Shown here piece after piece: positions 350-47,923 of a stretch of DNA of 64,000 nucleotides; the stretch's first letter is position 1; each line of letters starts with the position of its first letter. Below the pieces are notes generated by a model. The model was not told the origin of the DNA. It searched no databases and was given only the letters and a program-made list of their open reading frames with translations. Position numbers and translations under genes: made by a program. The DNA is from Treponemataceae bacterium (lineage in GTDB: Bacteria > Spirochaetota > Spirochaetia > Treponematales > Rectinemataceae), in NCBI GenBank assembly GCA_963678065.2, contig CAXXVZ010000005.1:1-64000 (forward strand). The letters run 5' to 3'.

Positions 350-2805
350 ACCTGCGCCTCCCCGACCCGCGCGTCCAGCGCGAATCCGCCCGAACCTTCG
401 TCGAAGACGACGAAGGGATTGAGGTCTACCGACTGAATTCGCCCGCCCTTCGCGAGCATGAGATTCCCGAGTCCGACGAGGGCGTCGAGTAGTGCGCCCA
501 TGTCGGCGGGTTTCGCGCCGCGCGCCCCCGCGAGGATCGGCCAGACCGCGTTCCGCTTCACGAAGAGGGCGGCCTCTTTTCTGTCGAAGGGGGGACGGAG
601 GAAATCGACTCCGCCGAGAAGCTCGACGAAGATGCCGCCGGGGCCGAAGGCCACGACGGGGCCGAACTGCGCGTCGACCTGGGCGCCGATGAAGACTTCC
701 CGGCCGCCGCGGACCATGGGTTGGACAAGGAAGCCCTCGGGGCGGCAGTCCTCAGGAATGCGCGAGAGCATGCCGAGGGCTGATGCCCCGACCTCCTCCG
801 GGCTGTCGAGATCGAGGGCCACGAGGCCTGAGTCGCTCTTGTGGCTGAATCCGGGCGCGAGGAGTTTGAGGACGACGGAAGCGCATCGCGTTCCACTCTT
901 TCCTGCCCTGTCACAGTCAGCGGCGAGCCGTGCGGAAACCGCGCCCCGGCTGAAAAGCGGCGATGCCGCCTCCGCCGCCAGAGCCGCGAGCGCGGCGCCA
1001 GGATCGACGACCTCGCAGCAGCCGGGGGGTATGAAACCCGCCCGCGAATGAACGAACCCCGGAGCAGAGCTCCGAGGTATCGTTCGTTCTGTAAGGAATG
1101 GATTGTATGCTGGTCCATACCCGATAGTCACCTCACAAGAAGAGCGAAGCAGAGCTTCGGGGTATGGACCAGCATGCGAATCATCCTGCCCCGTACCCGG
1201 TCCGCCTGCCGGAATGAAAACACTCTCCACAAAGGGAATACCGAATGTGCGAAAAAGACTCTGAGCAGCTTCATGCCCAAGCATGCCTTTCTCCGCCGGG
1301 CCTGTCGGCTTCGGCACGCCGTCAGCGCAGTCGCCGCCGCGGCCACGACTTTCCGAAGGCTCCGGGGTCGACTGCGAGGCCAGCCCGGCCGCGCGCCACT
1401 CTTCTGTGAACCTGCGCCAGGCGCAAAGGCGGCCGAGCGCGCGCACGCAGGGTCCCGGCGAATCGAACACGGGAATGCCCGCATCCCGCAGCGTCTGAAG
1501 CGCGCTCTTCGCGCCCGATCCTCCGCCATCCGCCGGCAGCGTCGGTCCGACCCAGACGACGAACACGGGTTTTCCGAACTCCGAGCGCGCCGCGATGAGG
1601 CTCCGCGCTGTCTCCAGCTCCACGTCCCTGTTCGGGTTCTTGGCGAAGAGGAGCACGGCCGCGTCGATCCTCTCGTGCCCGAGGAAAGGGGCCAGAGTGT
1701 CCCGCACCGCACTTCCCCGCATCCTGTCACCGCCGAAGTCGGCCGGATTGAGGATGGGCCCCTGCACCGAGCCCTGTCCGGGACCGAGTTCGGGAGGAAA
1801 GGGCTCTGGCTCGATGCCCGCGGATTTCGCGAGATCGCCGGCGAGAGATCCGAGGCCTCCCGACTGGGTGATCCAGGCGATGCGGTCCAGCGGAGAGTCC
1901 GCAGCCGCACAGGCCACGAGGGAAGTGGCGACCATATCTTCGATATCGTCGACGAGGATGATTCCGTACTGCCGGCAGATCGCCTCGAAGACCCTGCCTT
2001 CTCCAGCGAGGGCCGCCGTGTGCGTCGCCGCGAGTTTCCTGCCGAGCTCCGTGCGGCCCGACTTGATCGCGATCACGGGTTTTCCGGCCGCGAGGCATTT
2101 TTTGACCGCGTCGACGAACTCGCCGCCGTCGGGCATGCCTTCGATGAAGGCCGCGGCCACCGTGGTCGCCGCGTCCGATGCGAAGTACGAGAGGAAATCA
2201 GAAAGCCTGAATCCGGCCTGGTTGCCCACCGAGACGAGGGCGCGAAGACCCGCGCCCCGCTCGGCGAAAGCTCCGTGGAGGGCCATCATGAGCGCGCCGC
2301 TCTGCGAGACAAAGGAGATTCCTCCCGGCGCTGCGCGCGAATACAGCCGCGCGGCGATGACATTTCCGGCCACGTTGGCGAAGCCCGCGCAGTTCGGACC
2401 GAGAATGTGTATCCTGTCCCCGAAGGCTTCGATTTCCTCCTGCAGGGCCCGCCCCCCGGCTCCGGCCTCCGCGAATCCTGCGCTGATGACGACTGCCTGC
2501 CGGATACCCGCGTCGACGCAGTCCGCGAGCACTCCGGGCACTGCGGCCGCCGGGACCGTGATGACGGCGAGGTCGGCCTTCCCCCCGCCTTCGTCTTCCG
2601 GCCGCACCGGAAGATCGGCGAGAGAGGCGAGGCAGGCATGTCCGAAGACCTCGCTCCGCCTCGGGTTCACGGCGTACAGAGTCACCGGCGAGGCCGCGAG
2701 GCTTTTGAAAATATCGGCGGGGTAGATCCCCGATTCCGAGGCGCCGACATGGACGACAACGCGCGGAGAGAGGAGGTCGGCGAGGGCGGATATCCTGTCT
2801 TTCAT
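346..2805 (-). CDS. ADP-forming acetate/acyl-CoA ligase (CoA-binding + ATP-grasp fusion) carrying a 44-aa mobile-element insert
   Basis: Motifs VGAS, VISAGFAE, ILGPNC, SQSGAL, SVGNQA, KSGRT..ATHTAAL (phospho-His), HKSD, FGPVVAFGPGG, DLNP. Start reassigned to MKDRIS at 2805 (ATGA overlap with the upstream gene). Confidence 0.88.
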   Translation of the reverse strand: MKDRISALADLLSPRVVVHVGASESGIYPADIFKSLAASPVTLYAVNPRRSEVFGHACLASLADLPVRPEDEGGGKADLAVITVPAAAVPGVLADCVDAGIRQAVVISAGFAEAGAGGRALQEEIEAFGDRIHILGPNCAGFANVAGNVIAARLYSRAAPGGISFVSQSGALMMALHGAFAERGAGLRALVSVGNQAGFRLSDFLSYFASDAATTVAAAFIEGMPDGGEFVDAVKKCLAAGKPVIAIKSGRTELGRKLAATHTAALAGEGRVFEAICRQYGIILVDDIEDMVATSLVACAAADSPLDRIAWITQSGGLGSLAGDLAKSAGIEPEPFPPELGPGQGSVQGPILNPADFGGDRMRGSAVRDTLAPFLGHERIDAAVLLFAKNPNRDVELETARSLIAARSEFGKPVFVVWVGPTLPADGGGSGAKSALQTLRDAGIPVFDSPGPCVRALGRLCAWRRFTEEWRAAGLASQSTPEPSESRGRGGDCADGVPKPTGPAEKGMLGHEAAQSLFRTFGIPFVESVFIPAGGPGTGQDDSHAGPYPEALLRSSCEVTIGYGPAYNPFLTERTIPRSSAPGFVHSRAGFIPPGCCEVVDPGAALAALAAEAASPLFSRGAVSARLAADCDRAGKSGTRCASVVLKLLAPGFSHKSDSGLVALDLDSPEEVGASALGMLSRIPEDCRPEGFLVQPMVRGGREVFIGAQVDAQFGPVVAFGPGGIFVELLGGVDFLRPPFDRKEAALFVKRNAVWPILAGARGAKPADMGALLDALVGLGNLMLAKGGRIQSVDLNPFVVFDEGSGGFALDARVGEAQV
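1048..1179 (-). mobile_element. 132-bp palindromic non-autonomous element (IS200/IS605-type MITE/PATE-like), copy 1
   Basis: 126/132 identical to 47170-47301. Two subterminal hairpins. On the minus strand it is preceded by TGAT and ends in TTCAT. Confidence 0.85.
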
Positions 2806-3812
2806 GGCGCCCTCGAGCCCCCGTTCGCGGCGCAGGAGAGGGCGACGAGTTCGTCGGCGAGGTCGAGGAGGTCTTCGTCCGCGCTGAAGTCGAGGCAGAC
2901 GCCCGACGCGCGCCTGATCTGTCCGACCCAGCTTTCCGGAATGACCTCTATTCCATGGAGCGCGCCCGCGAGAGAGCAGACGAGGCCGGAAATCGTGTCG
3001 GCGTCGCGGCCGAAATTGGCGCTCCACAGGAGGCCCCGTCTGAAGTCTCCGCCGGTGAGTCGGAAGATGGCGTAGACCTGGGGGATAGCCTCGGCGGCCG
3101 TCGCGTGTTCAGGCGTCCAGAGCTTCGTGTGCAGATCCTCGAAGGCGATCTCGATGTCGGGCTTCGCGTCGCAGATTTGCATCGCGATGTCCATCATGCG
3201 CGCCATCCACGAGCCGGAGGGCATGCGCGCCCGGCCCGCCGCGACGATCTCGTCGACGGAGCCGTCGGCCATGGCGACGGCGACGCTCGCCGCGACGGCC
3301 TGGGCCGCGTAGATTCCGTCACGGTCGTGGCTGATGCAGGCGTCGACGGCCGCGAGGGCCGCGGCCCCTTCAGGGTCGCCGGCGCGGAAGACACCCACGG
3401 GACTGATCCGCATCGCGGCCCCATCGTCGGTGTTCATGACATTGTAGCGGCCGGACTCGGGCGGCAAGAGCCCGCGCCCGAGATTCTCGATGGCGCCGTA
3501 GAGGGGACGTCCCGCGCGTTTTTTCGCGCCGCCCCGGTCCAGGATGTATTTTTTCCACGCTGCGTACACATCGGCCGTCGTCGGCGCGCCCGCCGAATCG
3601 ATGAGGCAGCGGGCCGTGAGCACGCCGAACTCGGTGTCGTCGGTGCTCTTCGCGTCAGGGTACATGTTCGTGACGATGCCGTAGCGGGAACGGTAATCCT
3701 GACTGCGACCGATGTCGCCCATGGCATCTCCGACGCCGAGCCCCGCAAGGCATCCGCGAGCCTTCGACGTATACCGGGGACGGTTCGACAAAACCTCTTT
3801 CCGCTCAATCAT
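2802..3812 (-). CDS. ADP-ribosylglycohydrolase family protein
   Basis: GLGVGDAMG, STDDT, DGAAMRISPVG, GRDADT motifs. Confidence 0.9.
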   Translation of the reverse strand: MIERKEVLSNRPRYTSKARGCLAGLGVGDAMGDIGRSQDYRSRYGIVTNMYPDAKSTDDTEFGVLTARCLIDSAGAPTTADVYAAWKKYILDRGGAKKRAGRPLYGAIENLGRGLLPPESGRYNVMNTDDGAAMRISPVGVFRAGDPEGAAALAAVDACISHDRDGIYAAQAVAASVAVAMADGSVDEIVAAGRARMPSGSWMARMMDIAMQICDAKPDIEIAFEDLHTKLWTPEHATAAEAIPQVYAIFRLTGGDFRRGLLWSANFGRDADTISGLVCSLAGALHGIEVIPESWVGQIRRASGVCLDFSADEDLLDLADELVALSCAANGGSRAP

Positions 3813-4836
3813 GGTCCTTCATCCTTCTGTCGGCGACGCTCTCCCTCGTGACGAGGGTGCCGGGGTAGAGATGTTTTTCGGGATGCCTCGAGGGCTCCCT
3901 GATGCGCGCGAGAAGCAATTCCGCCGCCTTCCTTCCCATCTCGCCGCGCGGCTTGCGGATGGTCGTGAGCGCAGGCCAGGTGAGAGCGGCGGCGGGGATG
4001 TCGTCCATGCCGATGATGGAGATATCCCGGCCGGGCTCGACTCCACGCCCCCTGAGGGCGTTCTGCAGGGAAATCGCGAGGATGTCGTTTCCGCAGAGCA
4101 CGGCGCCGATCCTGTTCTTCCAGTCCGACACCGCGAGGATGTCGTCGGCGAGTTTTTCGCCCCCTTCCGCCGAGAGGTGGGCCGTGAAAACGAGGGCCGG
4201 GTCCTCGGGAATGCCATGCGTCGCGAGGAAATCCGAATAGGCGCTGTAACGGCGGGAGAGATAGCGCTCGCTCCCCGTCTCGCTCGTGACGACGGCGATG
4301 CGGCGGTGTCCCATATCGTGGAGGTACTGGAGGGCCACCGTTGCCGCGCTGTAGGTCGCCGTACCGACCGTGTCGATCTCCGTGGCCTCGCTCCGCTCGC
4401 CGATGAGGACGGCGGGAATTCCCGTCTCGAGGATGAGCCCGATCCTGTCAGTCACGCTGTTGATGATGAGCCCGTCGAAGCGTCCCGTGGAGGAAAGGTT
4501 GAGGTAGGAGAGTTCCCTCTCCTCGTTCCAATCCGTGTTTCCGACGACGACGGAGTAGCCCTCGGGCTCGAGCCTGTCCTGCACGGCGCGGGCTATCTCC
4601 GACCAGAAGGGGTTGGCGATGTCGGGGACGACGAGAAGCGCGAGGTAGGACTTCGAGTTGCGCAGTCCGGCCGCGAATGTGTTGCGCGTGTAGCCGAGCT
4701 CGCGGATGGCGGCGTCGACCGCCTCCTTCGCCTTCCGGCTCACGGAACCGCCCGAATCCGAGATCACGCGCGACACCGTGCTCTTGGAGACGCCTGCGAG
4801 ACGGGCGACTTCGTGGATGTTTATTTTCGGCTTCAT
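3805..4836 (-). CDS. LacI-family transcriptional regulator
   Basis: IHEVARLAGVSKSTVSRV HTH, PDIANPF, GMDD, PALTT. Start set at MKPKINI (4836). Confidence 0.93.
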   Translation of the reverse strand: MKPKINIHEVARLAGVSKSTVSRVISDSGGSVSRKAKEAVDAAIRELGYTRNTFAAGLRNSKSYLALLVVPDIANPFWSEIARAVQDRLEPEGYSVVVGNTDWNEERELSYLNLSSTGRFDGLIINSVTDRIGLILETGIPAVLIGERSEATEIDTVGTATYSAATVALQYLHDMGHRRIAVVTSETGSERYLSRRYSAYSDFLATHGIPEDPALVFTAHLSAEGGEKLADDILAVSDWKNRIGAVLCGNDILAISLQNALRGRGVEPGRDISIIGMDDIPAAALTWPALTTIRKPRGEMGRKAAELLLARIREPSRHPEKHLYPGTLVTRESVADRRMKDHD

Positions 4837-4838
4837 AT

Positions 4839-4858
4839 TTTTGGGAACGTTCCCAAAA
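4839..4858. promoter_or_regulatory. LacI-type operator (perfect 20-bp palindrome TTTTGGGAACGTTCCCAAAA)
   Basis: Perfect inverted repeat with central CG, lying between the predicted promoter and the LacI start codon. Confidence 0.8.
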
Positions 4859-4861
4859 CAG

Positions 4862-4890
4862 ACTATAGCACGATTCCCGGATTTCTGCAA
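4862..4890 (-). promoter_or_regulatory. Sigma70-type promoter of the LacI operon
   Basis: Minus strand TTGCAG-17 bp-TATAGT with an extended TG. Confidence 0.6.
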
Positions 4891-4953
4891 GGGAAATAGC
4901 TCACAAGCAAAACCGAAAACCGCAGGTGAAATAAACCGGTTGCCTTCCCTGTT

Positions 4954-6039
4954 TTACAGACTGAGTTCCGACAATCCCATCACACCGCATCCAGCCCCTG
5001 CCCCGATGGCGATCTCCCCACGGACGAGACTGTGGCAACTCTCAGCCATCTCCGGCTGGCTCGCGAAACAGGTGAGATCGCAACTCAGGCTCTCAGGCAG
5101 AACGGCGGCCAAATGCAGGCAATGCGCCGCTCCGAGTTGCGTATCGAAAACGCTGGTGACGACACAGCGAATCCCGGCCGCTTTCGCGATGGCGGCGACA
5201 TCGAGGGCCGGCTTCAGCCCGCCGAGCTTTATGAGTTTGATGATGAAAACATCGACGCAATGATCTTTCGCCAAGACAAGGGCATCGTGCACGCTGCCCA
5301 GACTTTCATCGGCAGCGATGCGCACACCGGATGTTTCGCGCAACGTTCGAAGCCCCCGCGCGTCATCGCGGTTCAAGGGCTGTTCGAAGAATTCCAGATG
5401 CTCGCCCTCGAGTGATCCCAACACCCGCCGCGCGGTGGGAAAATCGTAGCCTTGGTTGGCGTCGACTCTGAGGTTCACGGCGCCGCCCAACGCCTCGCGC
5501 ACGGCCTTGATCCGCCGGATATCCTCGTCGGCCTCGCGGCCCGCTTTCAGCTTCAACGTCGTATAACCTTCGGCGGCATACGTTCGCGCCAGGCGCACCG
5601 CTTCGTCCTCCGAGGTGATGCCGATGTGCCGGTTCACACCGACGCGGCCGCGGCACAAGCCGCCAAGAAGGACATACTCAGGGACGCCCAAGGCGTGCGC
5701 GGTCAGGTCGTAGAGCGCCATGTCCGCGGCCGCTTTGGCCGCCGCGTTTCCATAGATGGCGGCGTCCATGCGCCGGTGGGCTTCGGTTATGTCCCCGCTC
5801 TCCATCCCGATGAGCGCGGGCAGCAATTCCTCTTCGAGGATGACCCTGATGGAGGAAGCCGTCTCTCCCGTGAAATCGGGAAGCGGGGTCGCCTCCCCCC
5901 AGCCTTTCGCGCCATCGCGGCCGGTCAGGCGAACCAGGACATGCGGGAAGATCTCTTCCGCCGGCCCGTAGGTCGTGGCGAGCATGGATGAGGCTGACCG
6001 TCTGATGATGAAGACCACAAAGCTCTCAATGATCGACAT
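4954..6039 (-). CDS. Mandelate racemase/muconate lactonizing enzyme family (dipeptide epimerase or N-acyl-amino-acid racemase-like)
   Basis: GWGEA, KLK, DANQG, EQP, ADES, KLIKLGG motifs. Start MSIIES at 6039 with a GGAG RBS. Confidence 0.85.
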   Translation of the reverse strand: MSIIESFVVFIIRRSASSMLATTYGPAEEIFPHVLVRLTGRDGAKGWGEATPLPDFTGETASSIRVILEEELLPALIGMESGDITEAHRRMDAAIYGNAAAKAAADMALYDLTAHALGVPEYVLLGGLCRGRVGVNRHIGITSEDEAVRLARTYAAEGYTTLKLKAGREADEDIRRIKAVREALGGAVNLRVDANQGYDFPTARRVLGSLEGEHLEFFEQPLNRDDARGLRTLRETSGVRIAADESLGSVHDALVLAKDHCVDVFIIKLIKLGGLKPALDVAAIAKAAGIRCVVTSVFDTQLGAAHCLHLAAVLPESLSCDLTCFASQPEMAESCHSLVRGEIAIGAGAGCGVMGLSELSL

Positions 6040-6158
6040 CGCGTTTCTCCGGTTGAAAAAGGGGAAAAAGGAAAAGTACATGCAATGGCAAGGCGGAGGC
6101 CAAACGAAGAAAAGAATGGCTGACCCATATTCCAGCGAAACATCGGCCAGCCACGCGA

Positions 6159-6205
6159 ATGAACGCCCCCCGCAGCAGGGCTGCGAGGTATGGCCCCGCC
6201 TGCGA
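6159..6205 (-). mobile_element. 47-bp single-hairpin member of the same palindromic element family
   Basis: Minus strand TGAT|TCGCAGGCGGGGCCATACCTCGCAGCCCTGCTGCGGGGGGCGTTCAT|TCGCG. Same ends as the 132-bp copies, one hairpin, located just after the SBP stop codon. Confidence 0.75.
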
Positions 6206-6210
6206 ATCAC

Positions 6211-7725
6211 TTATTTGTATACAACGACATTCTGGTACTTGTGGGCACCGATTTCGCTCAACGTCAGCCCCTCGACCTTCTTGTTTACGCCGACGCGCAT
6301 CGTCTCGTAATAGAGCGTGATCATTGGGCAATCCACCATCAGGATCGGATAGATCTTGTCGAGAACCGCTTTTCGGGCGCTGTCGTCCATCTGTTCCCTG
6401 CTTTTAAGAATCAGCGCGTTCACTTCGGGATTGTTGTAGCGGGAATAATTGCTCATCGACGACGGATCGAAATTGCTGAAGAGGTTGTAGTCCGCGTCGC
6501 CCACGAGATTGTTGTAATAGGATACGGCCATATCGAAATCTTGATTGGATTGGATCCTGTTCTGCATGGTGGCCTGCTTCATCACCTCGATCTTCACGTT
6601 GATCCCGATGTCCAAAAGCTGACTCTGCAGGACGGTACAGATTTCGATGAAAGTCTGATCCTCTTCCACCCATATCGAGCAGTCGAAGCCTTTCTCGAAG
6701 CCCGCTTCTTTCAGCAACGCCTTGGCTTTCTTGACATCGTAGGATGGACCGTGGATTTTATCGTTGTATCCGAAGGCGGCCGGAGGAACGGGGAGGTCGC
6801 CCGCCTGTCCGAGATTGTTGAGCACTCCCTCGACGATCGCTTCCTTGTCGATCGCGTAAGCTATAGCCTGGCGGACGAGCTTGTTGCCGGTGGGGCCTTT
6901 CGACTTGGTGTTCAAGTTGATGCTGATGGCTTTCATCGATTCGCCTTTGAGAAGCGCGACGTTCTTTCCCTTTTCGATTCTTTTCACATCATTGGGTGGA
7001 ATGTCGTAGGCGACGTCGATCTCCCCGGTCTCCAGCATGATGCTCCGCTGCGTGCTCTCGGGAACCACTTTCATCACCAGATACTTCGTCTTGGCTTTTT
7101 CCCCATAATAGTCGGAAAAAGCTTCGAGCTTGCAGTAATTGTCCGGCTTCCATTCGACGAACTTGTAAGGTCCCGTGCCGACAGGGTTCAAGGCGAACTT
7201 CGCGGGATCTGCCTCCACGACTTTCTTGGGCACGATGGCGCAGACTGGGGTGGTAAGCGCGGCCAGGACAGGGGCATAGGGATACTTTGTCTTGAGGATC
7301 ACGGTGTAGGGATCCACGACGGTGGCCGAGTCGAGGAAGGAGATGTTGTTCGCGACGATCGGTGTTTTCTGCATCCTCTCGAAGCTGAACTTCACATCCT
7401 CGGCGGTGAGGCGATCGCCATTGTGCCACTTCACGTCCTTGCGCAGCTTGAACTTTATTTCGGTGCTCGAAATCTTCGTCCAGCTTTCGGCGAGGCTGGG
7501 CGCGAGATTCATGTTCTTGTCGAACTTCAAGAGCTGCTCGAACATGTTGCAGGTGACAGCAAAGGCGCGCAGTTGCTTGCCGATGTGTGGGTCCAGGGAA
7601 GTGAGATCGGATCCCTGAGCGAACGTTATGGTGTCCTTTGCCGCTCCTCCCGTCGCGGCGCCGCAGACCGCGATCGGGACCAGCAGCATCAAGCCGGCCA
7701 ACAGAAAAACTGATGCTTTCTTCAT
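6211..7725 (-). CDS. Peptide/nickel ABC transporter substrate-binding protein (family 5)
   Basis: SLDPH, LAPSLAESW, FKLRKDVKWHNG, PVGTGPYKF. Signal peptide MKKASVFLLAGL. AGGAGG RBS. Confidence 0.92.
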   Translation of the reverse strand: MKKASVFLLAGLMLLVPIAVCGAATGGAAKDTITFAQGSDLTSLDPHIGKQLRAFAVTCNMFEQLLKFDKNMNLAPSLAESWTKISSTEIKFKLRKDVKWHNGDRLTAEDVKFSFERMQKTPIVANNISFLDSATVVDPYTVILKTKYPYAPVLAALTTPVCAIVPKKVVEADPAKFALNPVGTGPYKFVEWKPDNYCKLEAFSDYYGEKAKTKYLVMKVVPESTQRSIMLETGEIDVAYDIPPNDVKRIEKGKNVALLKGESMKAISINLNTKSKGPTGNKLVRQAIAYAIDKEAIVEGVLNNLGQAGDLPVPPAAFGYNDKIHGPSYDVKKAKALLKEAGFEKGFDCSIWVEEDQTFIEICTVLQSQLLDIGINVKIEVMKQATMQNRIQSNQDFDMAVSYYNNLVGDADYNLFSNFDPSSMSNYSRYNNPEVNALILKSREQMDDSARKAVLDKIYPILMVDCPMITLYYETMRVGVNKKVEGLTLSEIGAHKYQNVVVYK

Positions 7726-7764
7726 CGTACGCCTCCTGGACGTCATGGAATTATGGTTTCCCCC

Positions 7765-8742
7765 TCACTGGGGGATGCACGCGCTCTTATCCGCGAGAAT
7801 GCAGGCCACCGTGTGGCCGGGCTCTATCTCGCGCAGGGACGGCGACGCCTCCCCGCACTCGGGTCGGGCATAGATACATCGCTTGGCGAAGCGGCATCCC
7901 GGCGCGGGATTTACAGGAGAGGTGAGCTCGCCTTGAAGCACGACTCGCTGCATCCGGCTTTCCGGATCGGGAATGGGTATCGCGGAGAGCAGGGCCTGCG
8001 TGTAGGGGTGGCCGGGATTGGAGAAAAGCTGCGCGGGCGTCGCCTGCTCCACGAGTTGCCCCAGATACATCACCATGATTTGATTGGACAGATGTTTCAC
8101 CACGCTCAGATCGTGCGTGATGAACAGATAGGTGAGCCCCAGCTGTTCCTGCAAATCCTGCATCAAGTTGAGCACTTGGGCCCGGATCGATACGTCCAAC
8201 GCCGAGACCGGCTCATCGCAGACAATGAATTTGGGATTGAGGGCGAGCGCCCGGGCGATTCCGATGCGCTGGCGCCTTCCCCCATCCAACTCGTGCGGAT
8301 AGGCGTTGACCAGGCGCCTCGCGAGGCCGACGAGGTCCATCATCTCAAAGACTTTTTTCTGGATCGCTTCAGTCTGGGAAGGCTTGTATATTCCCTGGAT
8401 CAAAAGGGGAGCCGAGATAGACTGACTGATCGTCATCCGGGGATTCAGCGAAGCGTAGGGGTCCTGGAAGATTATCTGCATCTGCGTGCGCAGCGCCTTC
8501 ATCTTGCGCGCGCGATATCCGAGTATGCTCGTCCCTTCGAAGAGGACATCGCCGTCCGTCGGCTCATGCAGCCGCAGTATGGTGCGGCCGAGCGTGGATT
8601 TGCCGCAGCCGGATTCGCCCACGACGCCGAGCGTGCTGCCTTGCCCGATGGAGAAGGAGACGTCGTCGACCGCGTGCAGCATCCCTCGCTTCGTGCGGAA
8701 GTATTTTTTCAGTCGCTTGACCTGGATTATGTCATCAGCCAT
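7765..8742 (-). CDS. Peptide ABC transporter ATP-binding protein (DppF/OppF-like)
   Basis: GESGCGKST, FQDPYASLNP, CDEPVSALD, HPYT, C-terminal Cys cluster. Signature reads LDGGRRQ. Confidence 0.93.
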   Translation of the reverse strand: MADDIIQVKRLKKYFRTKRGMLHAVDDVSFSIGQGSTLGVVGESGCGKSTLGRTILRLHEPTDGDVLFEGTSILGYRARKMKALRTQMQIIFQDPYASLNPRMTISQSISAPLLIQGIYKPSQTEAIQKKVFEMMDLVGLARRLVNAYPHELDGGRRQRIGIARALALNPKFIVCDEPVSALDVSIRAQVLNLMQDLQEQLGLTYLFITHDLSVVKHLSNQIMVMYLGQLVEQATPAQLFSNPGHPYTQALLSAIPIPDPESRMQRVVLQGELTSPVNPAPGCRFAKRCIYARPECGEASPSLREIEPGHTVACILADKSACIPQ

Positions 8743-9742: not shown

Positions 9743-9743
9743 C

Positions 9744-10640: not shown

Positions 10641-10655
10641 CGGGCAGACTCCTCG

Positions 10656-11600: not shown

Positions 11601-11604
11601 TTCC

Positions 11605-32941: not shown

Positions 32942-34477
32942 TCAGCATGGTTCGAATCCGTCTTTGCAGGCGGCCTCGCCTGTGTCGAAAGGATATACTC
33001 CCGAGAAACAGGCAGTACAGAAGCCCTCTGTCCTGCCGAGCGCTTTCATCATGCCACCCATGGAGAGGTACTCGAGCGAATCCGCCCCGACGGCTTCCCG
33101 TATCTGCTGCACGGACAGACGGTGCGCGATGAGCTGATCCCGCGTCCCCATGTCGACGCCCATGTGACAGGGATGGCGGATTGGCGGGCTCGTCAGCCGC
33201 ACATGCACTTCCCGGGCACCGGCCTCGCGGAGGAGTCTGATGATGGGGCCGGTCGTGTTGCCCCGGACGATGGAGTCGTCGACGACGACGAGTCTCTTGC
33301 CCCGGACGGCTTCCGGCATGACCATGAACTTGAGCGCGACGCCCTGCTTGCGCAGCGATTCCGTGGGCTGGATGAAGGTTCTCCCGATGTAGCGGTTCTT
33401 GACGAAGCCCTCGTCGTAGGGGATGCCCGAGGCCTGCGAATAGCCGATCGCGGCCGATATCGACGAATCGGGAACCGGGATCACAAGGTCGGCCGCGACG
33501 GGTGCCTCCCGCGCGATTTCCGCTCCGAATTTGCGCCTCACCTCGTGGACGGCGAGACCGTTCCAGACTGAGTCGGGGCGGGCAAAATAGATGTACTCGA
33601 ACACGCAGGAGGCCTGGACCGCGGCAGGCTCGATGCCGCCGCGCGAGACGGGGCCTTCGGCGGTCAGTTCGACGATTTCGCCCGAGCCGATATCGCGGAT
33701 ACCCGTGCAGCCGATGGTGCGAAGGGCGCAGGATTCAGAGGCCGCGGCAGATCCGGCCCTCGACGAATCTGCCGGCGCAGATCCGGCTGCTCGATCTGTC
33801 GGCGCAGATCCGGCCGTCGACGAATCTGCCGGCGACGATCCGCATTCCGGAAGGAGGCCGCAGGAGAGAGGGCGCAGGCCCCAGGGGTCGCGCGCCGCGT
33901 AGACGGCGTCCTGCGTGAGGACCACGAAGGAAAAGGCTCCGACCCACTCCCGCATGGAGGCAGCGATCCGCTCGGGCCAGGTCGCCCCCTCGGCCGCGGC
34001 GAGCATCATGACCATGACTTCGGTGTCGGAGGCCGAGGTCAGTCCGACTCCGCGCTCGAGAAGCTTGCGGCGCAGCGAGGCCGCGTTCACGAGGTTGCCG
34101 TTGTGCGCGAGCGCGAGGGGCCCGTACATCGTTTCGATCTGAAAAGGCTGGGCGTTGCGCGCCGTGCTCGATCCGGTCGTGGAATAGCGCGTGTGCCCGA
34201 TCGCGAGCGGGCCGGTGAGACTTGCCATGTCCCTCTCGGTGAAGACATGGGCCACGAGCCCGAGGTCCTTGTGGATCGCCATTCTCCTTGCATCGGAGCT
34301 CGCTATTCCCGCCGACTCCTGGCCGCGGTGCTGCAGCGCGAAAAGTCCGTAGAAAGCTGCCCTGGACGCGTCCTCGCGCGCGTTGGACACAGCGATGACG
34401 CCGCATTCCTCGTGAACCGCGTCGCTCTCCTTTGCGAATGCATCACAGAGACCCGGGTCGGAGCTCGCGTCTTTCAT
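32942..34477 (-). CDS. purF: Amidophosphoribosyltransferase
   Basis: Propeptide ending HEE then CGV, LQHRGQE, HTRYST, VDDSIVRG. Start MKDASS at 34477. Confidence 0.95.
   Translation of the reverse strand: MKDASSDPGLCDAFAKESDAVHEECGVIAVSNAREDASRAAFYGLFALQHRGQESAGIASSDARRMAIHKDLGLVAHVFTERDMASLTGPLAIGHTRYSTTGSSTARNAQPFQIETMYGPLALAHNGNLVNAASLRRKLLERGVGLTSASDTEVMVMMLAAAEGATWPERIAASMREWVGAFSFVVLTQDAVYAARDPWGLRPLSCGLLPECGSSPADSSTAGSAPTDRAAGSAPADSSRAGSAAASESCALRTIGCTGIRDIGSGEIVELTAEGPVSRGGIEPAAVQASCVFEYIYFARPDSVWNGLAVHEVRRKFGAEIAREAPVAADLVIPVPDSSISAAIGYSQASGIPYDEGFVKNRYIGRTFIQPTESLRKQGVALKFMVMPEAVRGKRLVVVDDSIVRGNTTGPIIRLLREAGAREVHVRLTSPPIRHPCHMGVDMGTRDQLIAHRLSVQQIREAVGADSLEYLSMGGMMKALGRTEGFCTACFSGVYPFDTGEAACKDGFEPC
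33747..33833. repeat. Three tandem 27-30-bp self-complementary units inside purF
   Basis: Units GCAGATCCGG...ATCTG(C/T)CGGC of 30, 27 and 30 bp. They encode an in-frame Ser/Ala/Pro-rich insert. Confidence 0.8.
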
Positions 34478-36892: not shown

Positions 36893-36902
36893 TGGATACT
36901 CC

Positions 36903-39872: not shown

Positions 39873-39876
39873 TTGG

Positions 39877-41271: not shown

Positions 41272-41302
41272 GGTCGGATACTATCAGAGCCGCAGCGCTT
41301 GG

Positions 41303-41734
41303 TTAAGACCGCGGCGAGACGAGGACGAACAGTTTCGAACCGATCCAGAACAGGACGAGGGCCCAGATGGCGATGAAAATGACGCCGGTCACCCAGTTCT
41401 TCCTGAGGGAGGGAGGATTCGCCTCCGCCTTGGTCGCGCACTCCGCACGCACTTCTTCCGGAATCAATTTCAGCGCCAGGGCGATGAGGGCGGGCACGAT
41501 GATGAGGTCGTCGAGGTAGCCGAGCACGGGGATGAAGTCGGGTATGAGATCGACGGGGCTCAGGGCATAAGCCAGGGCGAGGCCCATCACGAGGCGGGCA
41601 GGCAGTCCGGTCTGTGCGTGTCCGAAGGCGTAGTAGACGACGGCGAGATCCTTCTTGAGGGCGCGCGCCCGGGACTTGAGGGCATCCCTGAAGGAGGCGA
41701 GGGCCTTGAACAGCCTTTGCGGGTTTTTCTCCAT
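41303..41734 (-). CDS. DUF1232/YkvA-family membrane protein
   Basis: YALSPVDLIPDFIPVLGYLDD. Start MEKNP at 41734. Confidence 0.88.
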   Translation of the reverse strand: MEKNPQRLFKALASFRDALKSRARALKKDLAVVYYAFGHAQTGLPARLVMGLALAYALSPVDLIPDFIPVLGYLDDLIIVPALIALALKLIPEEVRAECATKAEANPPSLRKNWVTGVIFIAIWALVLFWIGSKLFVLVSPRS

Positions 41735-42420
41735 CAGTCGGCCTCCATGACCTGGTTGAATCGCACAATGGTGAAAAGGCGGGCGGGATTCTCCGGCTCG
41801 CCGGGAAAGGAAGTCAGCGCGGCGGCGACCGGTTCTGGTGACGCTGGTGGCGACAGGGGTCGCGACTCCTGCCGAAGTTCCAGTTCGAGGATGCCGCAGG
41901 TGTCCTGCGCGAAGCGGAAACGGTCCCAGGGCGGCAGGCCGAGAAGGTGGCACATGAGGATGCGGATGAAGCCGTCGTGGGTGAAGCAGGCCGCATCGAG
42001 TCCTTCTTCCGCCCGCTCAGCCAGGAAGGGCGCGATGCGCCCGACGACATCCGAGCCGCTCTCTCCGCCGGGATAGCGGAAGTCGGTCTTCTTCGCAAGG
42101 TACTCCGCCATGAAGTCGGGGTACGCGGCCGCGAAGGCCGCGTCGTCGAGCTTGTCCCGCACGCCGACATCGATCTCGTCGAGGCGTGGATCGACGATGG
42201 GCGCGAGAGAGCGCTCCGAGGCCAGGGGCGAGGCGGTCTCGGAAGTGCGGCCGTAGCGGCTCGCGAAAATGCGCTCCACGGGGCGCCTTGCGAAATACCG
42301 CAGGAGGGCCCGGGCCTCGGCCCTGCCCCGCTCGCTCAGGATGTTGTCCTGATGTCCGATCCTCTCGCTGTAGAAGTCGCCCGGTTCTTTGTCGCCATGG
42401 CGGATGAAGTAGAGTCTCAC
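41734..42420 (-). CDS. Histidine phosphatase family protein
   Basis: FIRHG, R...TA, EIDVG, PGGES, THDG. Confidence 0.88.
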   Translation of the reverse strand: MRLYFIRHGDKEPGDFYSERIGHQDNILSERGRAEARALLRYFARRPVERIFASRYGRTSETASPLASERSLAPIVDPRLDEIDVGVRDKLDDAAFAAAYPDFMAEYLAKKTDFRYPGGESGSDVVGRIAPFLAERAEEGLDAACFTHDGFIRILMCHLLGLPPWDRFRFAQDTCGILELELRQESRPLSPPASPEPVAAALTSFPGEPENPARLFTIVRFNQVMEAD

Positions 42421-43394
42421 CGCCTCACCTGACTTTCCGGCGAAGAACAGTCACGCAGCACCGATCCGTCGAGCGCCCCGCGGAGGACTATGCGCGCTTG
42501 GCCGGACAGAAGGATTCGGTCGCCCGCGCACTCGAGACCGATCTGTCCGCCTCGCGGCGACAGCTGGCGCGCCTTCAGCACAGTCTTGCCGAGCCTCGCG
42601 CCCCACCAGGGACCGAGGAGGGTGTGCACGGAGCCGGTGACGCTGTCTTCGTCGACGCCGAACCAGGGATTGAAGTAGCGCGATTCGAAATCGAAGCCAT
42701 CCCTGCCCGGCGCGGAGACGCCTACGCCGTAGCGGATGCGCTGATCGCTCAGGGCGAGGAGCGCGCGAAAATCGGGGGCGAGGGATTCGACCCGCACGGG
42801 ATCGTCGACGATGAAGACAGTCTTCTTCGTCGATCTGCCGTAGAGGACGGAATCGCAGGCGCCAAGGCCGAGCGCCTTCGCGCAGGCCGGATCCAGATCG
42901 ATCTCGTCCCAGGTGTCGGCGGGGAAATCCATGCGGAATCCCGCCCCGGTCCCCTCGATCCCGGCTCGCGAGACGGCGAGCGTCCCCGATGCCGAATCGA
43001 AAAATATCGTCTCTCCGGCGCCGGCCGCGCCAGATCCGCCTCCAGCTCCCTTTGCCAGCTCGAAGAGCACCGCCGCGGACGCGAGAGTCGCGTGCCCGCA
43101 CAGAGCCACTTCGCGAAGGGGCGTAAACCAGCGCAGTGAGGGTGAGGGTGAGGGCGAGGGCGAGGGCGAGGGCGATGGAACATGAGTCGGCCGACCGCCC
43201 CCTTCGTCTCCTCGCGACGGACCGCCCGGGGACGGGGGCAGGAGGACGAAGGCGCTCTCCGCACAGTTGGTTTCGGCGGCCAATCTCTGCATGACGGAGA
43301 CGGGGAAATCCGCATCGACGATGAAGACTGCAGCCTGGTTGCCCCGGAAGGCCCGGTCGGTGAAAGCGTCCACGAGAAAGTAGCGGCATTCCAT
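42417..43394 (-). CDS. PhzF-family isomerase/epimerase
   Basis: VDAFT...GNQAAV, ESAF, RWFTP..EVALCGHATLA, EDSVTGS. Start MECRY at 43394. Confidence 0.9.
   Translation of the reverse strand: MECRYFLVDAFTDRAFRGNQAAVFIVDADFPVSVMQRLAAETNCAESAFVLLPPSPGGPSRGDEGGGRPTHVPSPSPSPSPSPSPSLRWFTPLREVALCGHATLASAAVLFELAKGAGGGSGAAGAGETIFFDSASGTLAVSRAGIEGTGAGFRMDFPADTWDEIDLDPACAKALGLGACDSVLYGRSTKKTVFIVDDPVRVESLAPDFRALLALSDQRIRYGVGVSAPGRDGFDFESRYFNPWFGVDEDSVTGSVHTLLGPWWGARLGKTVLKARQLSPRGGQIGLECAGDRILLSGQARIVLRGALDGSVLRDCSSPESQVRR
43138..43173. repeat. Hexanucleotide microsatellite (GAGGGY)6 encoding poly(Pro-Ser) in the PhzF protein
   Basis: Read directly from the sequence. Confidence 0.85.
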
Positions 43395-43538
43395 GGGAGC
43401 ATTGTAGCGCAAGGCGGGCCTGGGACTCAAGGAAACAAAGACATGCGCAATCCAAACTCCCCTCAAGGACGCTTGCGGGCTATGAAACCCAAGCTCCGAT
43501 CATGGCAAAAAACGGGAATCGGGTTTAGACTGAGATAT

Positions 43539-44972
43539 ATGGATGCCGTCACGGATTCCAGCATAGCCCGGGACTTCGACACGCTTTTCTCCACGCCCCT
43601 CGTCATGAAGACACTCGCCCGCAACGGAGTCTTCGCGATCGACTACCGGAACAACAGGGCCTTCGCAAACGAACTCTGGCTCTCGTGGGGCTACACAGTC
43701 GAAGACATGCTCACCGGCACTATCCTCGACATAGTCCATCCCGAGGACAGAGAAACCATCGCTTCGCACTATCACAGACTGCTTTCGGGCGAAGAGGACT
43801 TCTACTCGGGAGAATACCGCATCAGGACAAAACCGGGCAGGACGGTCTGGGTCTCCGTGAGCTACGAGGTGCTCGAGCGCGAGGAGGATGGCAAGCCTGT
43901 CTTCTTTCTCGGACACGACGAGGACGTGACGGCTCTGCACGAGGCGCAGGACGAGATCAGGACGCGCCTTTTGGAAATAGAGACCCTCAAGGATCTCATC
44001 GAGGGCATCCACCAGAGTCTCGACCTCGCGAAGACCATCGACCTCGTCATGAACCACCTCCAGAAAGTCATCCGCTTCGACAGAGCCTCGGTTCAGCTCG
44101 TCGAAGGCGACTGTCTCCACGTGATCGGGACCTACGGGTTCAGGGACAGGATGCTGCCGGATCTGCGATTCCCGATCAAGGGAATGTCCAATCCCCCGGC
44201 CAGGGCTCTCGAAACGAAAAAAACCGTCATCTGCAACAATCTCGGGCGCGATTTTCCGGATTTCGTCCAGGTCGACCCCGAGGCCACGATCCGGTCATGG
44301 CTCGGCATACCGCTCGTCGTGAACGAGGTGGCGGAAGGACTGCTCGCCATAGACAGTTTCCAGCCGGGATACTACACGGAGCAGCACGTCATCCTCGCGA
44401 ACACGGTGGCGAGACAGATCGCGATGGCGCTGGAGCACGCACGCGCGCATCGCCACGTTTCGATCAAGGCCGAGACCGACAAGCTCACCGGAATCGCCAA
44501 CCGCTACGGGCTCGACGGACAGGGCCAGGCCCTGTTCAGGGTCGCGCTGCAGGAAAGGACGCCGCTCGGCCTGCTCCTCGTCGACATCGACAGGTTCAAG
44601 GTGACGAACGACAGGCACGGCCACGAACATGGGGACAAGGTTCTCGGGGCGGTAAGCGCCGTCGTCGCCGGGAATCTCCGCGGAGACGATTTCCCTGTCC
44701 GCTACGGCGGAGACGAGTTCGTCATCCTTTTGCCGGGAGCGAATATCCAGGAAGCCTTCTCGATAGCGGAGCGGATCAGGCTCAGGATCGCCTACTCGGC
44801 GCCGGACGAAAAGGGAGTGGCCCCGACAGTGAGCATCGGCGTTCACAGCGGCATCCCCTCGGAGAAAGACGAACTCCACGAGTACATCGCCTGCGCCGAC
44901 AGGGCCATGTACGAGGCAAAGAAGATGGGCCGCAACCGCTCCTGTATCTCGGCCGAATCATTGAAGGCATGA
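43539..44972 (+). CDS. PAS-GAF-GGDEF diguanylate cyclase
   Basis: PAS (IVHPEDR, EYRIR), GAF (SWLGIPL), DKLTG..NR, DIDRFK..ND..GH..GD, RxxD I-site and RYGGDEF. Start MDAVT at 43539. Confidence 0.9.
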   Translation: MDAVTDSSIARDFDTLFSTPLVMKTLARNGVFAIDYRNNRAFANELWLSWGYTVEDMLTGTILDIVHPEDRETIASHYHRLLSGEEDFYSGEYRIRTKPGRTVWVSVSYEVLEREEDGKPVFFLGHDEDVTALHEAQDEIRTRLLEIETLKDLIEGIHQSLDLAKTIDLVMNHLQKVIRFDRASVQLVEGDCLHVIGTYGFRDRMLPDLRFPIKGMSNPPARALETKKTVICNNLGRDFPDFVQVDPEATIRSWLGIPLVVNEVAEGLLAIDSFQPGYYTEQHVILANTVARQIAMALEHARAHRHVSIKAETDKLTGIANRYGLDGQGQALFRVALQERTPLGLLLVDIDRFKVTNDRHGHEHGDKVLGAVSAVVAGNLRGDDFPVRYGGDEFVILLPGANIQEAFSIAERIRLRIAYSAPDEKGVAPTVSIGVHSGIPSEKDELHEYIACADRAMYEAKKMGRNRSCISAESLKA

Positions 44973-45011
44973 TCCCGACCGGAGGACACAAGAAGGTCGA
45001 CACTTCCTATC

Positions 45012-45644
45012 TCAGCCCTCCTGAGTCTGCCCCGGCCTTCTTCCTGTTCCTGTCCCCCTGCCCGATCCGGAAATGACAGTCTGGATGAAGATGAAGAGGA
45101 AAATCAGCACGCCGATGAAAATCTTCGTCCACCAGGAGCTGAGAGTGCCCTGGAAATTGATGATGGTCTGGATCACTCCGAGAATCAGCGTTCCGAAGAC
45201 ACTTCCGAAAATGTACCCGACTCCGTCCGTGAGCAGAGTGCCGCCTATGACGGCCGCGGCAATGGCGTCGAGGTGGGTGTCCTTGCAGTGGAGCGCGTAA
45301 CCGGACTGCATGTAGAACGTAAAGACGACGCCTGCGATCGCGGAGCAGAGCCCCGAAATCGTATAGACAAGGATTTTCGCCTTCGCGACAGGAAGTCCCA
45401 TGAGAAGGGCCGACTGTTCGCTGCCGCCGATGGCGTAGATTGTCCGGCCGAAACGGGTATAGTGCGCGAGATAAATTCCCGCCGCGATGCCGAGGAAGGC
45501 GTTGTCGATGAAGAGATTAAAAAACACCTGGGAGGAAAAAAACGCCGGATAGAGGATCGATCCGATCGCGTACATGAAGAGAAACAGGCCGATCGTGATG
45601 CTCAGGGGAAGGTATTTTCCGTCAAAGGCCTTTTTCTCTTTCAT
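45012..45644 (-). pseudogene. YjfF-like sugar ABC permease with a large internal in-frame deletion
   Basis: The N-terminal FIDNAFLGIAA joins directly to YLAHYTRFGRTIYAIGG. At 210 aa it lacks the GIDLSVG-containing middle of this permease family. Confidence 0.75.
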
Positions 45645-46494
45645 GATGCCATCCTCCTCGACGCGAACAGCCGCGCCACGCTTGCCCTGAACCTTTCGGA
45701 CTGCAGGAGGCTCACGATGAAAACGACAATCGATTTGATGAGCAGGTTGACCTGGGGCGGAACGCCGATGGCGTATATCGTGGTCGTGCGTGTCTGGATT
45801 ATCAGGGCTCCGATAATAGATCCGGAAAGGAAAAACTTTCCGCCGTTCAGCGAAGTTCCGCCGAGAACGACGGCGAGAATCGCGTCGAATTGATCCCCGC
45901 GTACCTGCTCGCCGTCGGATTCGCGCCGACTGATTCGATGTAGAGACCGAGGGCTGTCTTCCTGGTCACGAAAGCGGTGAGCGCCACGAGAATCGCCGCG
46001 ATATACAGCGAAAACGGAAGGCCGAAAATGTAGCCGGAGTTTCCCATGAAAAAATACGGCTTGTAATAGATCGTGATTATCTGCCCGTTCGTCACGAGCT
46101 GCGCGATGCCGCGGCCGGCCACCATCAGTATGATGGTCGCGACGATGGGCTGGATGTTGAGCCTCGCCACGAGAAATCCGTTCCACAGACCGAGAATTGC
46201 CGCGGCGGCCAAGGCGCCGGCGATAGCTCCCGATATTGCGACAACCGAACCGACTAAAATGTCGATGCCCTTGGTCGCGATGACGAGGGTCAGCCCGAGG
46301 GCTATTATCATGATGTAGGTCGAGCGGTTGCGTATGTCGACGATGATTCCGGAGAGGCGCCCGTTCTTCACTTCGAAATGAAGGAAATTGTTGGTGAACG
46401 CGACATTGAGGAGAAACAGGAGCAAGAGCGTGACGACGGGCCAGAACAGGCGGGTTTTCGCGACCCCGCCGGCGAAACCGTTTTTCTCAGCCAT
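45641..46494 (-). pseudogene. YtfT-like sugar ABC permease, deleted and frameshifted
   Basis: The frame with GIDILVGS and QPIVAT ends after YAGIN. The C-terminal DAILAVVLGGT lies in another frame and the intervening segment is missing. Confidence 0.8.
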
Positions 46495-46527
46495 GTGCCT
46501 TTGCCCCTTTGCCCGTGTCGCCGTGGG

Positions 46528-47923
46528 CTATCGCGTAGAGTATTTTCTTCTCGTCGATGTCGTCGCCTTCAAGTTCGCCGATCTTTTTTTGTCGCGGAGG
46601 ATGGCGACCCTGGACGAGGAGGCGATGATCTCATCGAGTTCCGAAGAGATGAAAAGAATGGACATGCCGCCGGAGCTGAGTTTCCGGATGAGAGATTTTA
46701 TTTCGCCCTTCGCGCCGACATCGATGCCGCGGGTTGGCTCATCAAGAATCAGAAATTTCGGCCCGGTGGCGAGCCGGCGGGCGAGAATGGCTTTCTGCTG
46801 GTTGCCCCCTGATAGTGTCCTGATGGGCCGCGAAGTGTCGTCCACTTTTATGTCGAGAAGCCGCACATACCGGTCGGCAATCTCTTCCTGTTTTTTCCGG
46901 CTCAAACTACGGAAGATGCCGTTGCGGGCCTGGAGCGCGAGGATGATGTTTTCCCTCACCGAGAGGTCCTCGATTATTCCTTCGGCCTTACAGTCCTCGG
47001 GACAAGCCCATGCCCGCCGCGACGGCGTCGATCGAAGGGGCTCATGTAGCCCTTACGCCCGAGCCCGCGGACGGAGAGCACTTCGGGATTTTCCCGCGCC
47101 GCGCCGGAGCGCTCCTGCCGGTCGGAGGGCGGTTTATCGCTCACATATTCCCTGCCTATCATCCGCGAAATGAACGAACCCCGGAGCAGAGCTCCGAGGT
47201 ATCGTTCGTTCTGTAAGGAATGGATTGTATGCGGGTCCATACCCGATAGGCGCCTCACAAGAAAAGCGAAGCAGAGCTTCGGGGTATGGACCCGCCTGCG
47301 AATCAACTCCAGTTTCGGCAGATCGCGCGCGTCCCAGTCTCCGACGCGCTCGCCGTTTTTGAGCACGGTGATCCGGTCGGAAATCGCGTACACCTGGTCG
47401 ATGAAGTGCGTGATGAAAAGTATGCCGAGGCCCTGCGCCTTCAGCTTCCTGATGACGCCGAATAACTGTTCCGATTCCTTTTCGTCAAGACTCGATGTCG
47501 GCTCGTCGAGAATGAGAATCTCCGATTCGATATCGAGAGCGCGTCCGATGGCGACCATCTGCTGGACCGCGATGGGGTAGGACGACAGAAGGCGGGTCAC
47601 ATCGATCTTTAATCCGAGCTTCTCGCCGAGGACCCGCTTTGCCTCCTCATTGACGCGCTTCCAGTCGATCCCGAGGCCCCGCCTCGGCTCCCTCCCGATC
47701 AGCACGTTTTCCGCGACAGTGAGGTTGGGGCAGAGATTCACTTCCTGGTATTCTGGCCCATCAATGCGTGGACCTCTCCCCGGAACATGCGGAAATCCAC
47801 CCCCGACAGGGCTTTCACTCCGGGGAAACTGATGGTTATGTTCGCCATCTCGAGCACAGGAGGTACGGTGCCGGAAAAATCCGCGTCGGGAAGCTTCGCG
47901 TCGGGCATGGGCTTTCTCCTCAT
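46528..47923 (-). pseudogene. YtfR/RbsA-like sugar ABC ATPase, fragmented and carrying element copy 2
   Basis: Pieces lie in separate frames: [15 protein letters not shown] (Walker A lost), YQEVNL..DEPTSSL..ITHF, and LSGGNQQK..DEPTRGIDVGAK. Confidence 0.85.
47170..47301 (-). mobile_element. 132-bp palindromic element, copy 2
   Basis: 126/132 identical to 1048-1179. Removing it restores ELISRMIG. Preceded by TTGAT on the minus strand. Confidence 0.88.

Follow-up and report, generated by a model that had tools for sequence, protein, structure and literature searches.

A gene-less mini-transposon family with IS200-type ends, probably mobilised in trans, in a spirochaete order

A family of short palindromic sequences is present in three copies in the window, a stretch of 64,000 nucleotides from a Treponemataceae genome. 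We read it, with a probability of about 0.84, as a gene-less mini-transposon (PATE) with IS200-type ends, which would insert without duplication after a four-base target matched by its own guide, and which is likely moved as a single-stranded DNA circle by an IS200 Y1 transposase. The element is too short for a transposase gene, multicopy and polymorphic between strains; we infer that it is mobilised in trans.

Copies in the window and their empty sites

Read on the minus strand, each of the three sequences follows TGAT, starts with TCGCA and ends with CGTTCAT, as the initial annotation had described; the three hairpin stems and the CATA and GATA tetranucleotides that it reported are there as well. 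The parts are as follows.

1048..1179, minus strand: mini-element copy 1, full-length, 132 bp; exactly 132 bp missing in a contig of run X6
1180..1183, minus strand: target TGAT of copy 1, host DNA, putative left cleavage site; retained in the empty allele
1163..1166, minus strand: left guide CATA of copy 1, 13 nt from the putative cut; covaries with the target
1145..1162, minus strand: left subterminal hairpin of copy 1, CCC-CGAAGC-TCT-GCTTCG; 3' arm short, as in IS200 left ends
1107..1122, minus strand: internal inverted copy of the left end, copy 1; 16 bp, the complement of 1160-1175, with a predicted pairing across the guide
1089..1106, minus strand: linker between the two stems of copy 1; conserved, diverged in the subfamily of genus g23
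1078..1081, minus strand: right guide GATA of copy 1
1057..1077, minus strand: right subterminal hairpin of copy 1, stem of 9 bp; matches in sequence type the right hairpin of a tnpA element in genome G035
1048..1051, minus strand: terminal TCAT of copy 1, putative right cleavage site
6159..6205, minus strand: form of 47 bp with a single hairpin, in which left and right ends are fused
6206-6209, 6189-6192 and 6168-6188, minus strand: target TGAT, guide CATA and hairpin of the 47-bp form
47170..47301, minus strand: mini-element copy 3, full-length, 132 bp
47302-47305, 47285-47288, 47229-47244 and 47200-47203, minus strand: target TGAT, left guide, inverted copy and right guide of copy 3
346..2805, minus strand: host gene of copy 1, acetate-CoA-ligase-like protein (CoA_binding, Succ_CoA_lig, ATP-grasp_5)
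46974..48128, minus strand: host gene fragment of copy 3, ABC ATPase; second ABC_tran piece at 46528-46959

Copies 1 and 3 share 96% identity. Each contributes 44 codons, in frame, to its host gene, the first to the acetate-CoA-ligase-like gene, the second to the ABC ATPase fragment, a gene that is also broken downstream of the insertion. The 47-bp form sits 5 nt past the stop codon of a peptide-binding-protein gene. Three features had been overlooked before: both 132-mers lie in frame within genes, the left end recurs as an inverted copy inside the element, and guide and right end mismatch in the 47-mer. That short form had been counted as a family member. It does have the TGAT, TCGCA and CGTTCAT ends, but its single guide, CATA, mismatches the TCAT end at site position 2. 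Its fold is weak (z = -1.9; 9 of 200 shuffles equally good), while that of copy 1 is strong (z = -8.9; 0 of 200), and no joint removing it precisely appeared in the four runs examined. We regard the 47-mer as probably immobile; forms of 45-50 bp have likely arisen by deletion of the core from one hairpin to the other and stayed where they were.

Comparison with empty alleles bears out the earlier claim that insertion makes no target-site duplication: these sites lack exactly the element and have gained no bases. A 4765-nt contig of run X6, from a related strain, joins position 1046 to 1179, skipping 132 nucleotides and leaving the TGAT target intact; run X3 likewise skips 132 at this place, the intervening letters not being read there. 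In genus g23, clean empty alleles keep TTAT at two of three sites tested. One g23 site occurs in three forms, G042 being empty, G093 having the full element and G038 a short one, and at one the empty alleles have TTAC or TTAA instead of TTAT, with flanks 83-86% identical. At the joint of copy 1 three letters fit either side and ATT borders both junctions, as would be expected of a classical 129-bp MITE moved by a DDE transposase with a 3-bp ATT duplication. This reading is strongly disfavoured. The element has near-terminal palindromes at both ends and no terminal inverted repeats, related tnpA elements with a TTAA target share a single T at their junctions, and the second target base tracks the guide. 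Furthermore, the right end, followed directly by T in all three window sequences, is followed by another base in 6 of 59 ends across the family. A preference for T at position +1 accounts for the ATT ambiguity, which is missing in the TTAA-target relatives. A +1 preference shared with the first base of the left end is known for IS608 and ISDra2 (PMC5934647, in the part considered here).

Targets, strand and guides

The genome holds about 30 copies, including those of the window, and relatives carry the element too. A left-end scan anchored only on letters internal to the element, with at most one mismatch, gave 31 matches, from which one internal inverted copy was removed. Counted by hand, the four bases before the 30 remaining left ends are TGAT in 25, CGAT in 3, TGAC in 1 and TCAT in 1, the last being a tandem junction; TGAT occupies 0.34% of genome positions. 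This genome-wide tabulation of ends agrees with the initial annotation in showing fixed boundaries, and tandem junctions carrying the circle-junction sequence were observed. The presumed lagging-strand template holds the top strand in 23 of 25 copies (50.7% for TGATT as a comparison), replichores having been set by eye from weak third-position T-A skews, dnaA and rRNA (whole-genome GC skew being too weak). The bias is weaker in two closed g23 genomes (28/41 copies). The collections of plasmids and phages searched gave no match.

Long copies rarely lie inside genes (3 of 19), and several copies stand 1-11 nt away from where a gene is predicted to end. This position, together with the tolerance of G-U pairs in the stems and the conservation of transposase-free IS605 stem loops in Borrelia (PMC2775950, as far as the part consulted goes), could suggest a mostly domesticated RNA stem, a terminator or stabiliser, now spread between strains by recombination, with RNA folding or palindrome correction preserving the inverted copy. 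We hold this to be very improbable, as it leaves unexplained both the many unrelated insertion sites after a guide-matched target and the strand bias, which persists where flanking genes do not favour it (12/14, hand count). It may still account for the inverted copy.

The guides, too, argue for a mini-transposon with IS200-type ends. It had been proposed that CATA specifies TGAT and GATA specifies TCAT, and across the order guide and cut site do change together, in the pairs CATA with TGAT, AATA with TTAT and GATA with TCAT, all four combinations of left and right guides being found. Guide base 1 is complementary to base 2 of the target in 64 of 68 parsed left ends, and to base 2 of the site in 57 of 59 right ends; these rows are related sequences stemming from few events and are not independent, so that Fisher p-values overstate the association. 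Guide positions 1, 2 and 4 are complementary to site positions 2, 1 and 4, 47-mers mismatching at the right end, in agreement with the rule of IS608 (He et al., 2011, PMC3201880, from the portion used here). The tnpA elements obey it at 11 of 13 left ends (parsed from 26 loci) and 11 of 12 right ends (15 rows minus 3 mis-anchored).

If the biochemistry of IS608 and ISGst applies, TnpA would bind both hairpins, CATA would select TGAT and GATA would select TCAT, and cuts would fall 3' of each site, with T preferred at +1. The element would likely leave as a single-stranded circle, and an IS200 Y1 transposase acting in trans would likely insert it again into the lagging-strand template. As described in the sections of PMC3201880, PMC5934647 and PMC5027513 drawn upon, IS608 and ISDra2 likewise pair a guide at the hairpin foot with the cut site, carry T and A at site positions 1 and 3, prefer a +1 base, make no duplication and favour the lagging-strand template. 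By contrast, the mini-element has neither tnpA nor tnpB, its left cut lies 13-15 nt from the guide (19 nt to the hairpin foot in IS608) and its right spacing after the hairpin is 4-5 nt (10 nt in IS608).

Candidate transposases and related elements

This genome codes for three identical, open copies of an IS200 tnpA with HVH and Y..Q motifs. They belong to the tnpA-only IS200 elements (NF033573) of the same hosts, which share with the mini-element the layout of the ends, the hairpin arms and the spacing; NCBI assigns one homologue the name ISEfa4-family. From one host family to another, the hairpin arm changes with that of the family's IS200 (CCCCGACGC in family f3, CCCCGC.. in f4, CC(C/T)CG(C/A)AGC in f1). 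The expectation that a Y1 TnpA bounded by a like end architecture would exist holds in this genome and in relatives. These IS200 elements differ in targeting TTAA or TTAT, TGAT in none observed, and the linker is absent from all the tnpA elements examined. No tnpA element combining the TCGCA left end with a TGAT target was found in this genome or in the relatives examined, and among 43 metagenome loci with the linker none had a tnpA match, the left end lying about 27-103 nt away where enough upstream DNA was present. The proposed IS200/IS605 affiliation can be narrowed: it is tnpA-only IS200 elements that have matching ends, and not an ISDra2-like element with tnpA and tnpB, and searches of this genome gave no TnpB.

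Could the mover now be another HUH enzyme, a RAYT-like TnpA or an unrecognised one, acting on IS200-derived ends at least where IS200 is absent? In g23 the left end is present in 16 of 26 genomes, in near-identical, insertion-polymorphic copies, while PF01797 was detected in none of the 26 (nine of them single-contig) and a TnpA query gave one marginal match (E 0.0096). Within the window's own family 12 of 19 carrier relatives have no PF01797 match, the matching clade occurring only in G224; in the closed genome G051 the Y1 matches are weak and RAYT-like only, and the inverted pair resembles a REP/iREP doublet. We nevertheless consider this unlikely. The element hairpins are missing at RAYT-like loci, two of which have palindromes of their own; g23 also lacks the RAYT-type matches that PF01797 detects elsewhere; and guide/target covariation, with hairpins identical to those of the host-family IS200, fits an IS200 TnpA. 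A scan of 8 Y1 loci, 6 of them weak or RAYT-like, found the element signature at none. REP/BIME with RAYT do share an inverted palindrome pair and a mostly intergenic location, and Rickettsia palindromic elements an occasional in-frame gene insertion (PMC3184786, in the part considered); unlike all of these, the mini-element has a defined tetranucleotide target and no GTAG-type tag or REPtron.

PATEs often encode omega-RNAs (Meers et al., 2023, PMC10055086, in the part consulted), and both the TGAT target and the middle, which is structured and conserved, are reminiscent of the ISDra2 motif, so that the element might instead carry a guide RNA for TnpB or IscB in trans. This too is very unlikely: TnpB was not found in this genome or in four other carriers, the sole g23 match over the cut-off coming from a genome that lacks the element, the autonomous elements with matching ends have tnpA only, and an Rfam search returned weak hairpin matches far under gathering scores. 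In the IscB and IS91-type searches the control was silent in both. The ISGst PATE-like elements described in the same part of that paper are akin in that a single TnpA works in trans on elements without genes and that guide and site covary; they carry omega-RNAs and coexist with TnpB/IscB, none of which was found here. Further readings were rejected: a -10 box at TACAAT and a translation start at AAGGA..ATG of the opposite strand, neither being kept in the g23 subfamily, and two viral-contig matches to the linker, which are chance matches in coding DNA.

Among the closest parallels are the PATEs of Haloquadratum walsbyi (Dyall-Smith et al., 2011, PMC3119063). The parts of that account considered here describe features that recur in the present family: near-terminal palindromes, no terminal inverted repeats, no duplication, no transposase, ends as in autonomous relatives, homogeneous copies, 52-bp terminal-only core deletions and palindromes invaded by other elements. 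The spirochaete element differs in being bacterial and order-wide, with ends matching tnpA-only IS200 and a covarying internal inverted copy. Literature titles and abstract openings held no description of this spirochaete family, which supplementary MITE catalogues (e.g. PMC11602168) could contain.

An internal inverted copy and persistence without TnpB

The internal inverted copy covaries with the left end, and is absent from the descriptions of known elements compared, including the consulted part of PMC3119063. Predicted pairing places it over the left guide. In the folded element strand both guides are predicted to be paired, a pairing that TnpA would have to overcome, while the left guide of the tnpA-only IS200 relatives is predicted unpaired. 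Excision by TnpA is reported to be far commoner than integration, and the loss to be rescued by TnpB (Meers et al., 2023, PMC10055086, in the portion seen), which raises the question of how elements devoid of TnpB persist. The inverted copy, if this predicted pairing holds, may damp excision, and this would help an element without TnpB to persist between transposase visits. One may extend this, tentatively and with more doubt than confidence, to a self-locking, order-wide PATE lineage, with an inverted copy that hides the guide and slows excision, bursts driven by a passing IS200 (or by an unrecognised HUH enzyme in g23), natural reprogramming among three guide/site pairs, and a dedicated IS110 element targeting it.

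The covarying stem, predicted to cover the guide, would be one directly testable answer to persistence without TnpB. Genus g23, in which no transposase was found, would either preserve the traces of short-lived IS invasions or hint at a different enzyme as the mover. For the little-studied tnpA-only IS200 group, the family offers a natural, repeated case of retargeting by a guide. Its substrate of 132 nt is easily testable, and the genome itself supplies a candidate transposase (C3:861833).

Copies, ends and anatomy of the mini-element

The window opens contig C5 of a 5.27 Mb host genome (G000) that holds about 30 copies of a gene-less mini-element, in size classes of 131-135, 106-107, 83 and 45-50 bp; the three sequences of the window match their earlier description. 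They are listed here with the anatomy of the element, read on its top strand (the minus strand in the window), and with the ends of the resident IS200.

Features of the mini-element and of the IS200 of G000
1048-1179, minus strand: copy 1
6159-6205, minus strand: 47-mer, the short single-hairpin form
47170-47301, minus strand: copy 3
Mini-element, left part: TGAT / 13-nt spacer / CATA / hairpin with short 3' arm / variable loop
Mini-element, right part: 16-nt inverted copy (spacer and guide) / conserved linker / GATA / 9-bp hairpin / 5 nt / TCAT, then T
IS200, left end: TTAA (TCAA in one copy) / 13 nt / AATT-CCCCGCAGC
IS200, right end: CATA-hairpin-TAGT-TGAT, then T

A paired-end scan of G000, biased toward GAT-preceded ends because its anchor contained GAT, returned 27 copies, with TGAT before 24 and CGAT before 3, a TCAT terminus in 25 and T as the next base in 26. 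In an unbiased left-end scan, after removal of one internal inverted copy, TGAT precedes 25 of 30 left ends (hand count), against a genome background of 0.34%, and the boundaries first drawn from the window hold genome-wide. Exact left-end matches occur in Rectinema, Treponema and Spirochaetaceae sequences. Older short forms (C5:715134-715179; C3:1222220-1222262; C4:183722) end in TGAT, not TCAT, as in the subfamily of the relative G037, which suggests an earlier wave. Head-to-tail dimers joined at the predicted circle junction are found for mini-element and IS200 alike (G000 C4:187078-187275 and C3:861740-862850; loci L134 and L019).

An IS110-family element (PF01548, PF02371, NF033542) sits within the hairpin loop of a 47-mer (G000 C3:2347623-2348880, L007), with CT, the core typical of IS621-type IS110 elements, at both flanks. 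The same IS110 end adjoins a mini-element hairpin in the relative G009 (C76, start of L030) and in the sequencing run X3 (joint at window 1067); its 3' non-coding region holds CCGAAGCAGAG, which matches that hairpin and is a candidate bridge-RNA target loop. At L069 (G115:C3), GTGCGCCCGGCATGGG, which is similar to the 5' end of a group II intron inserted after the hairpin, stands immediately 3' of the IS200 right end. Two 39-nt direct repeats, 92% alike with 57 nt between, occupy window 33747-33842.

Guide code and predicted folding

IS608 pairs G-35:C-3 and A-34:T-4, site position 3 being described as otherwise unpaired (He 2011, PMC3201880). That the ends of the mini-element obey such a guide-cleavage code is borne out in de-duplicated copies from relatives and metagenomes, where left ends (n = 68) comprise 32 CATA guides with TGAT and 26 AATA with TTAT, and 64 of the 68 have a Watson-Crick match at the varying guide/target pair. 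Since the element does not include its left target, this covariation is not attributable to a fixed stem. Right ends (n = 59) comprise 40 GATA with TCAT and 17 CATA with TGAT; there, a covarying stem extension accompanies guide/site covariation, and tnpA elements devoid of it obey the guide rule in 11 of 12 usable right-end rows. All four left/right guide combinations are present, though reflecting few independent changes.

When 21 copies from 7 genomes are aligned, the helix between left end and inverted copy is 91% paired and has changed on both sides at 5 of its 16 pairs, the first guide base among them; these copies are kin, so that the shuffle control gives no probability. DNA folding predicts that the left guide is no more than 2% unpaired, both in copy 1 and in the form of genus g23, which carries a distant subfamily; positions 1, 2 and 4 of the right guide are likewise predicted to be paired, and the IS200 left-end guide of G000 87-96% unpaired. 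Literature searches over titles and the openings of abstracts found no description of an internal guide-covering inverted copy, of this family, or of its occurrence in a genus free of Y1 transposase.

Insertion, excision and strand preference

Empty alleles agree with the insertion initially proposed. In run X6, of a related strain, a 4765-nt contig omits exactly the 132 bases of copy 1, three letters being assignable to either side; X3 omits 132 there too, the letters between being not known. Clean empty alleles keep TTAT at two of three tested g23 sites; the third has TTAC or TTAA, with more diverged flanks. What looks like an ATT duplication is more plausibly a preference for T at +1, given that IS608 favours there whatever base begins its own left end and that about 90% of ISDra2 insertions fall at TTGAT/G (PMC5934647); junctions of related TTAA-target tnpA elements have just one T in common.

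Run X10 displays two imprecise deletions (120 and 133 nt); in both, one breakpoint falls within a mini-element. Located at window 1009-1130 and 6051-6185, they remove its right half plus flank, the first (120 nt) preserving the host reading frame. Loose ends cluster at window 1046/1047 and 1183. One g23 site exists in three states (empty in G042, full-length in G093, short in G038), consistent with in-place core deletion, already proposed for haloarchaeal palindrome-associated transposable elements (PATEs; PMC3119063), as is the right end of short forms, unmatched by their single guide. Short forms would have lost their core in place and retained the original right end.

Copy 1 lengthens an otherwise open acetate-CoA-ligase-like gene by 44 codons, in frame; copy 3 adds 44 in-frame codons to an ABC ATPase gene interrupted elsewhere, and one more 132-mer (C5:1054357) is inserted in frame within the apparent signal peptide of a long ORF. 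Among long copies, in-frame insertion applies to 3 of the 6 whose length is a multiple of three and to none of the remaining 13 (hand-calculated hypergeometric p about 0.02, with two short open frames, C3:1443451 and C3:2305933, treated as non-coding); a link between the two is only suggested. Another 132-bp copy (G000 C2:49808-49939) lies immediately 5' of a stop codon and, provided the ORF is genuine, would lengthen it by 44 codons. Around copy 3, the sugar ABC transporter operon (window 46528-48784) seemingly has multiple frameshifts or deletions, from decay or assembly error.

The position of dnaA (C5:1.175 Mb), together with the orientation of the rRNA genes and the skew at third positions, puts the lagging template on the minus strand across most of G000. 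Leaving out 2 terminus-zone copies, 23 of 25 mini-elements lie on it (26 of 30 once five copies added by hand are counted), and TGATT sites are split 50.7% between strands. Two closed g23 genomes agree in 28 of 41 copies (p 0.028). Targeting of this template is an IS200/IS605 family trait (PMC5027513).

Candidate transposase and carriers without a Y1 match

A tnpA bounded by like ends, expected elsewhere in the genome, was found: G000 has three identical IS200 tnpA copies (C3:851074, 861833 and 862380, two of them tandem). Of 300 genomes sampled across the order, 17 carry homologues, and those with readable ends share this layout, comparable to that of the mini-element, whose hairpin arm matches that of the IS200 in its own host family. 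The differing target of the resident IS200 would be no obstacle, by analogy with a single TnpA that excises five IS families, gene-less ones included, the guide setting the target (Meers 2023, PMC10055086). G000 also has a further IS200 group and a RAYT-like gene (REP-associated tyrosine transposase), both with other ends, and no TnpB was found in G000 or in the four further carriers searched. In the relative G051, RAYT-like Y1 genes (L088, L091) have short palindromes of their own, GGTGCCAGGCACC and GGTGACTGTCACC, at their flanks.

A covariance model matches 19 of 68 relatives in the host family and 5 of 150 phylum genomes, every one within the same order. Counting against a simple supply of transposase by the host, 12 of the 19 family carriers lack a Y1 match, and the matching clade is present in G224 only. 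Most of these assemblies are fragmented and tnpA homologues lie mainly on contigs below 2 kb, which makes assembly dropout plausible. Dropout does not explain g23: its subfamily has elements of about 115 bp, seen in closed genomes, and their left end occurs in 16 of 26 genomes, with as many as 79 matches, and the Y1 profile PF01797 is absent from all 26, nine single-contig ones included. Mobilisation by a different enzyme would also fit this gap; we prefer transient IS200 invasions, followed by loss.

PATEs are a known class, and all their testable features are present here, in keeping with the single-strand substrate first envisaged: judged from sequence, the mini-element probably works like an IS200/IS605 peel-and-paste substrate.
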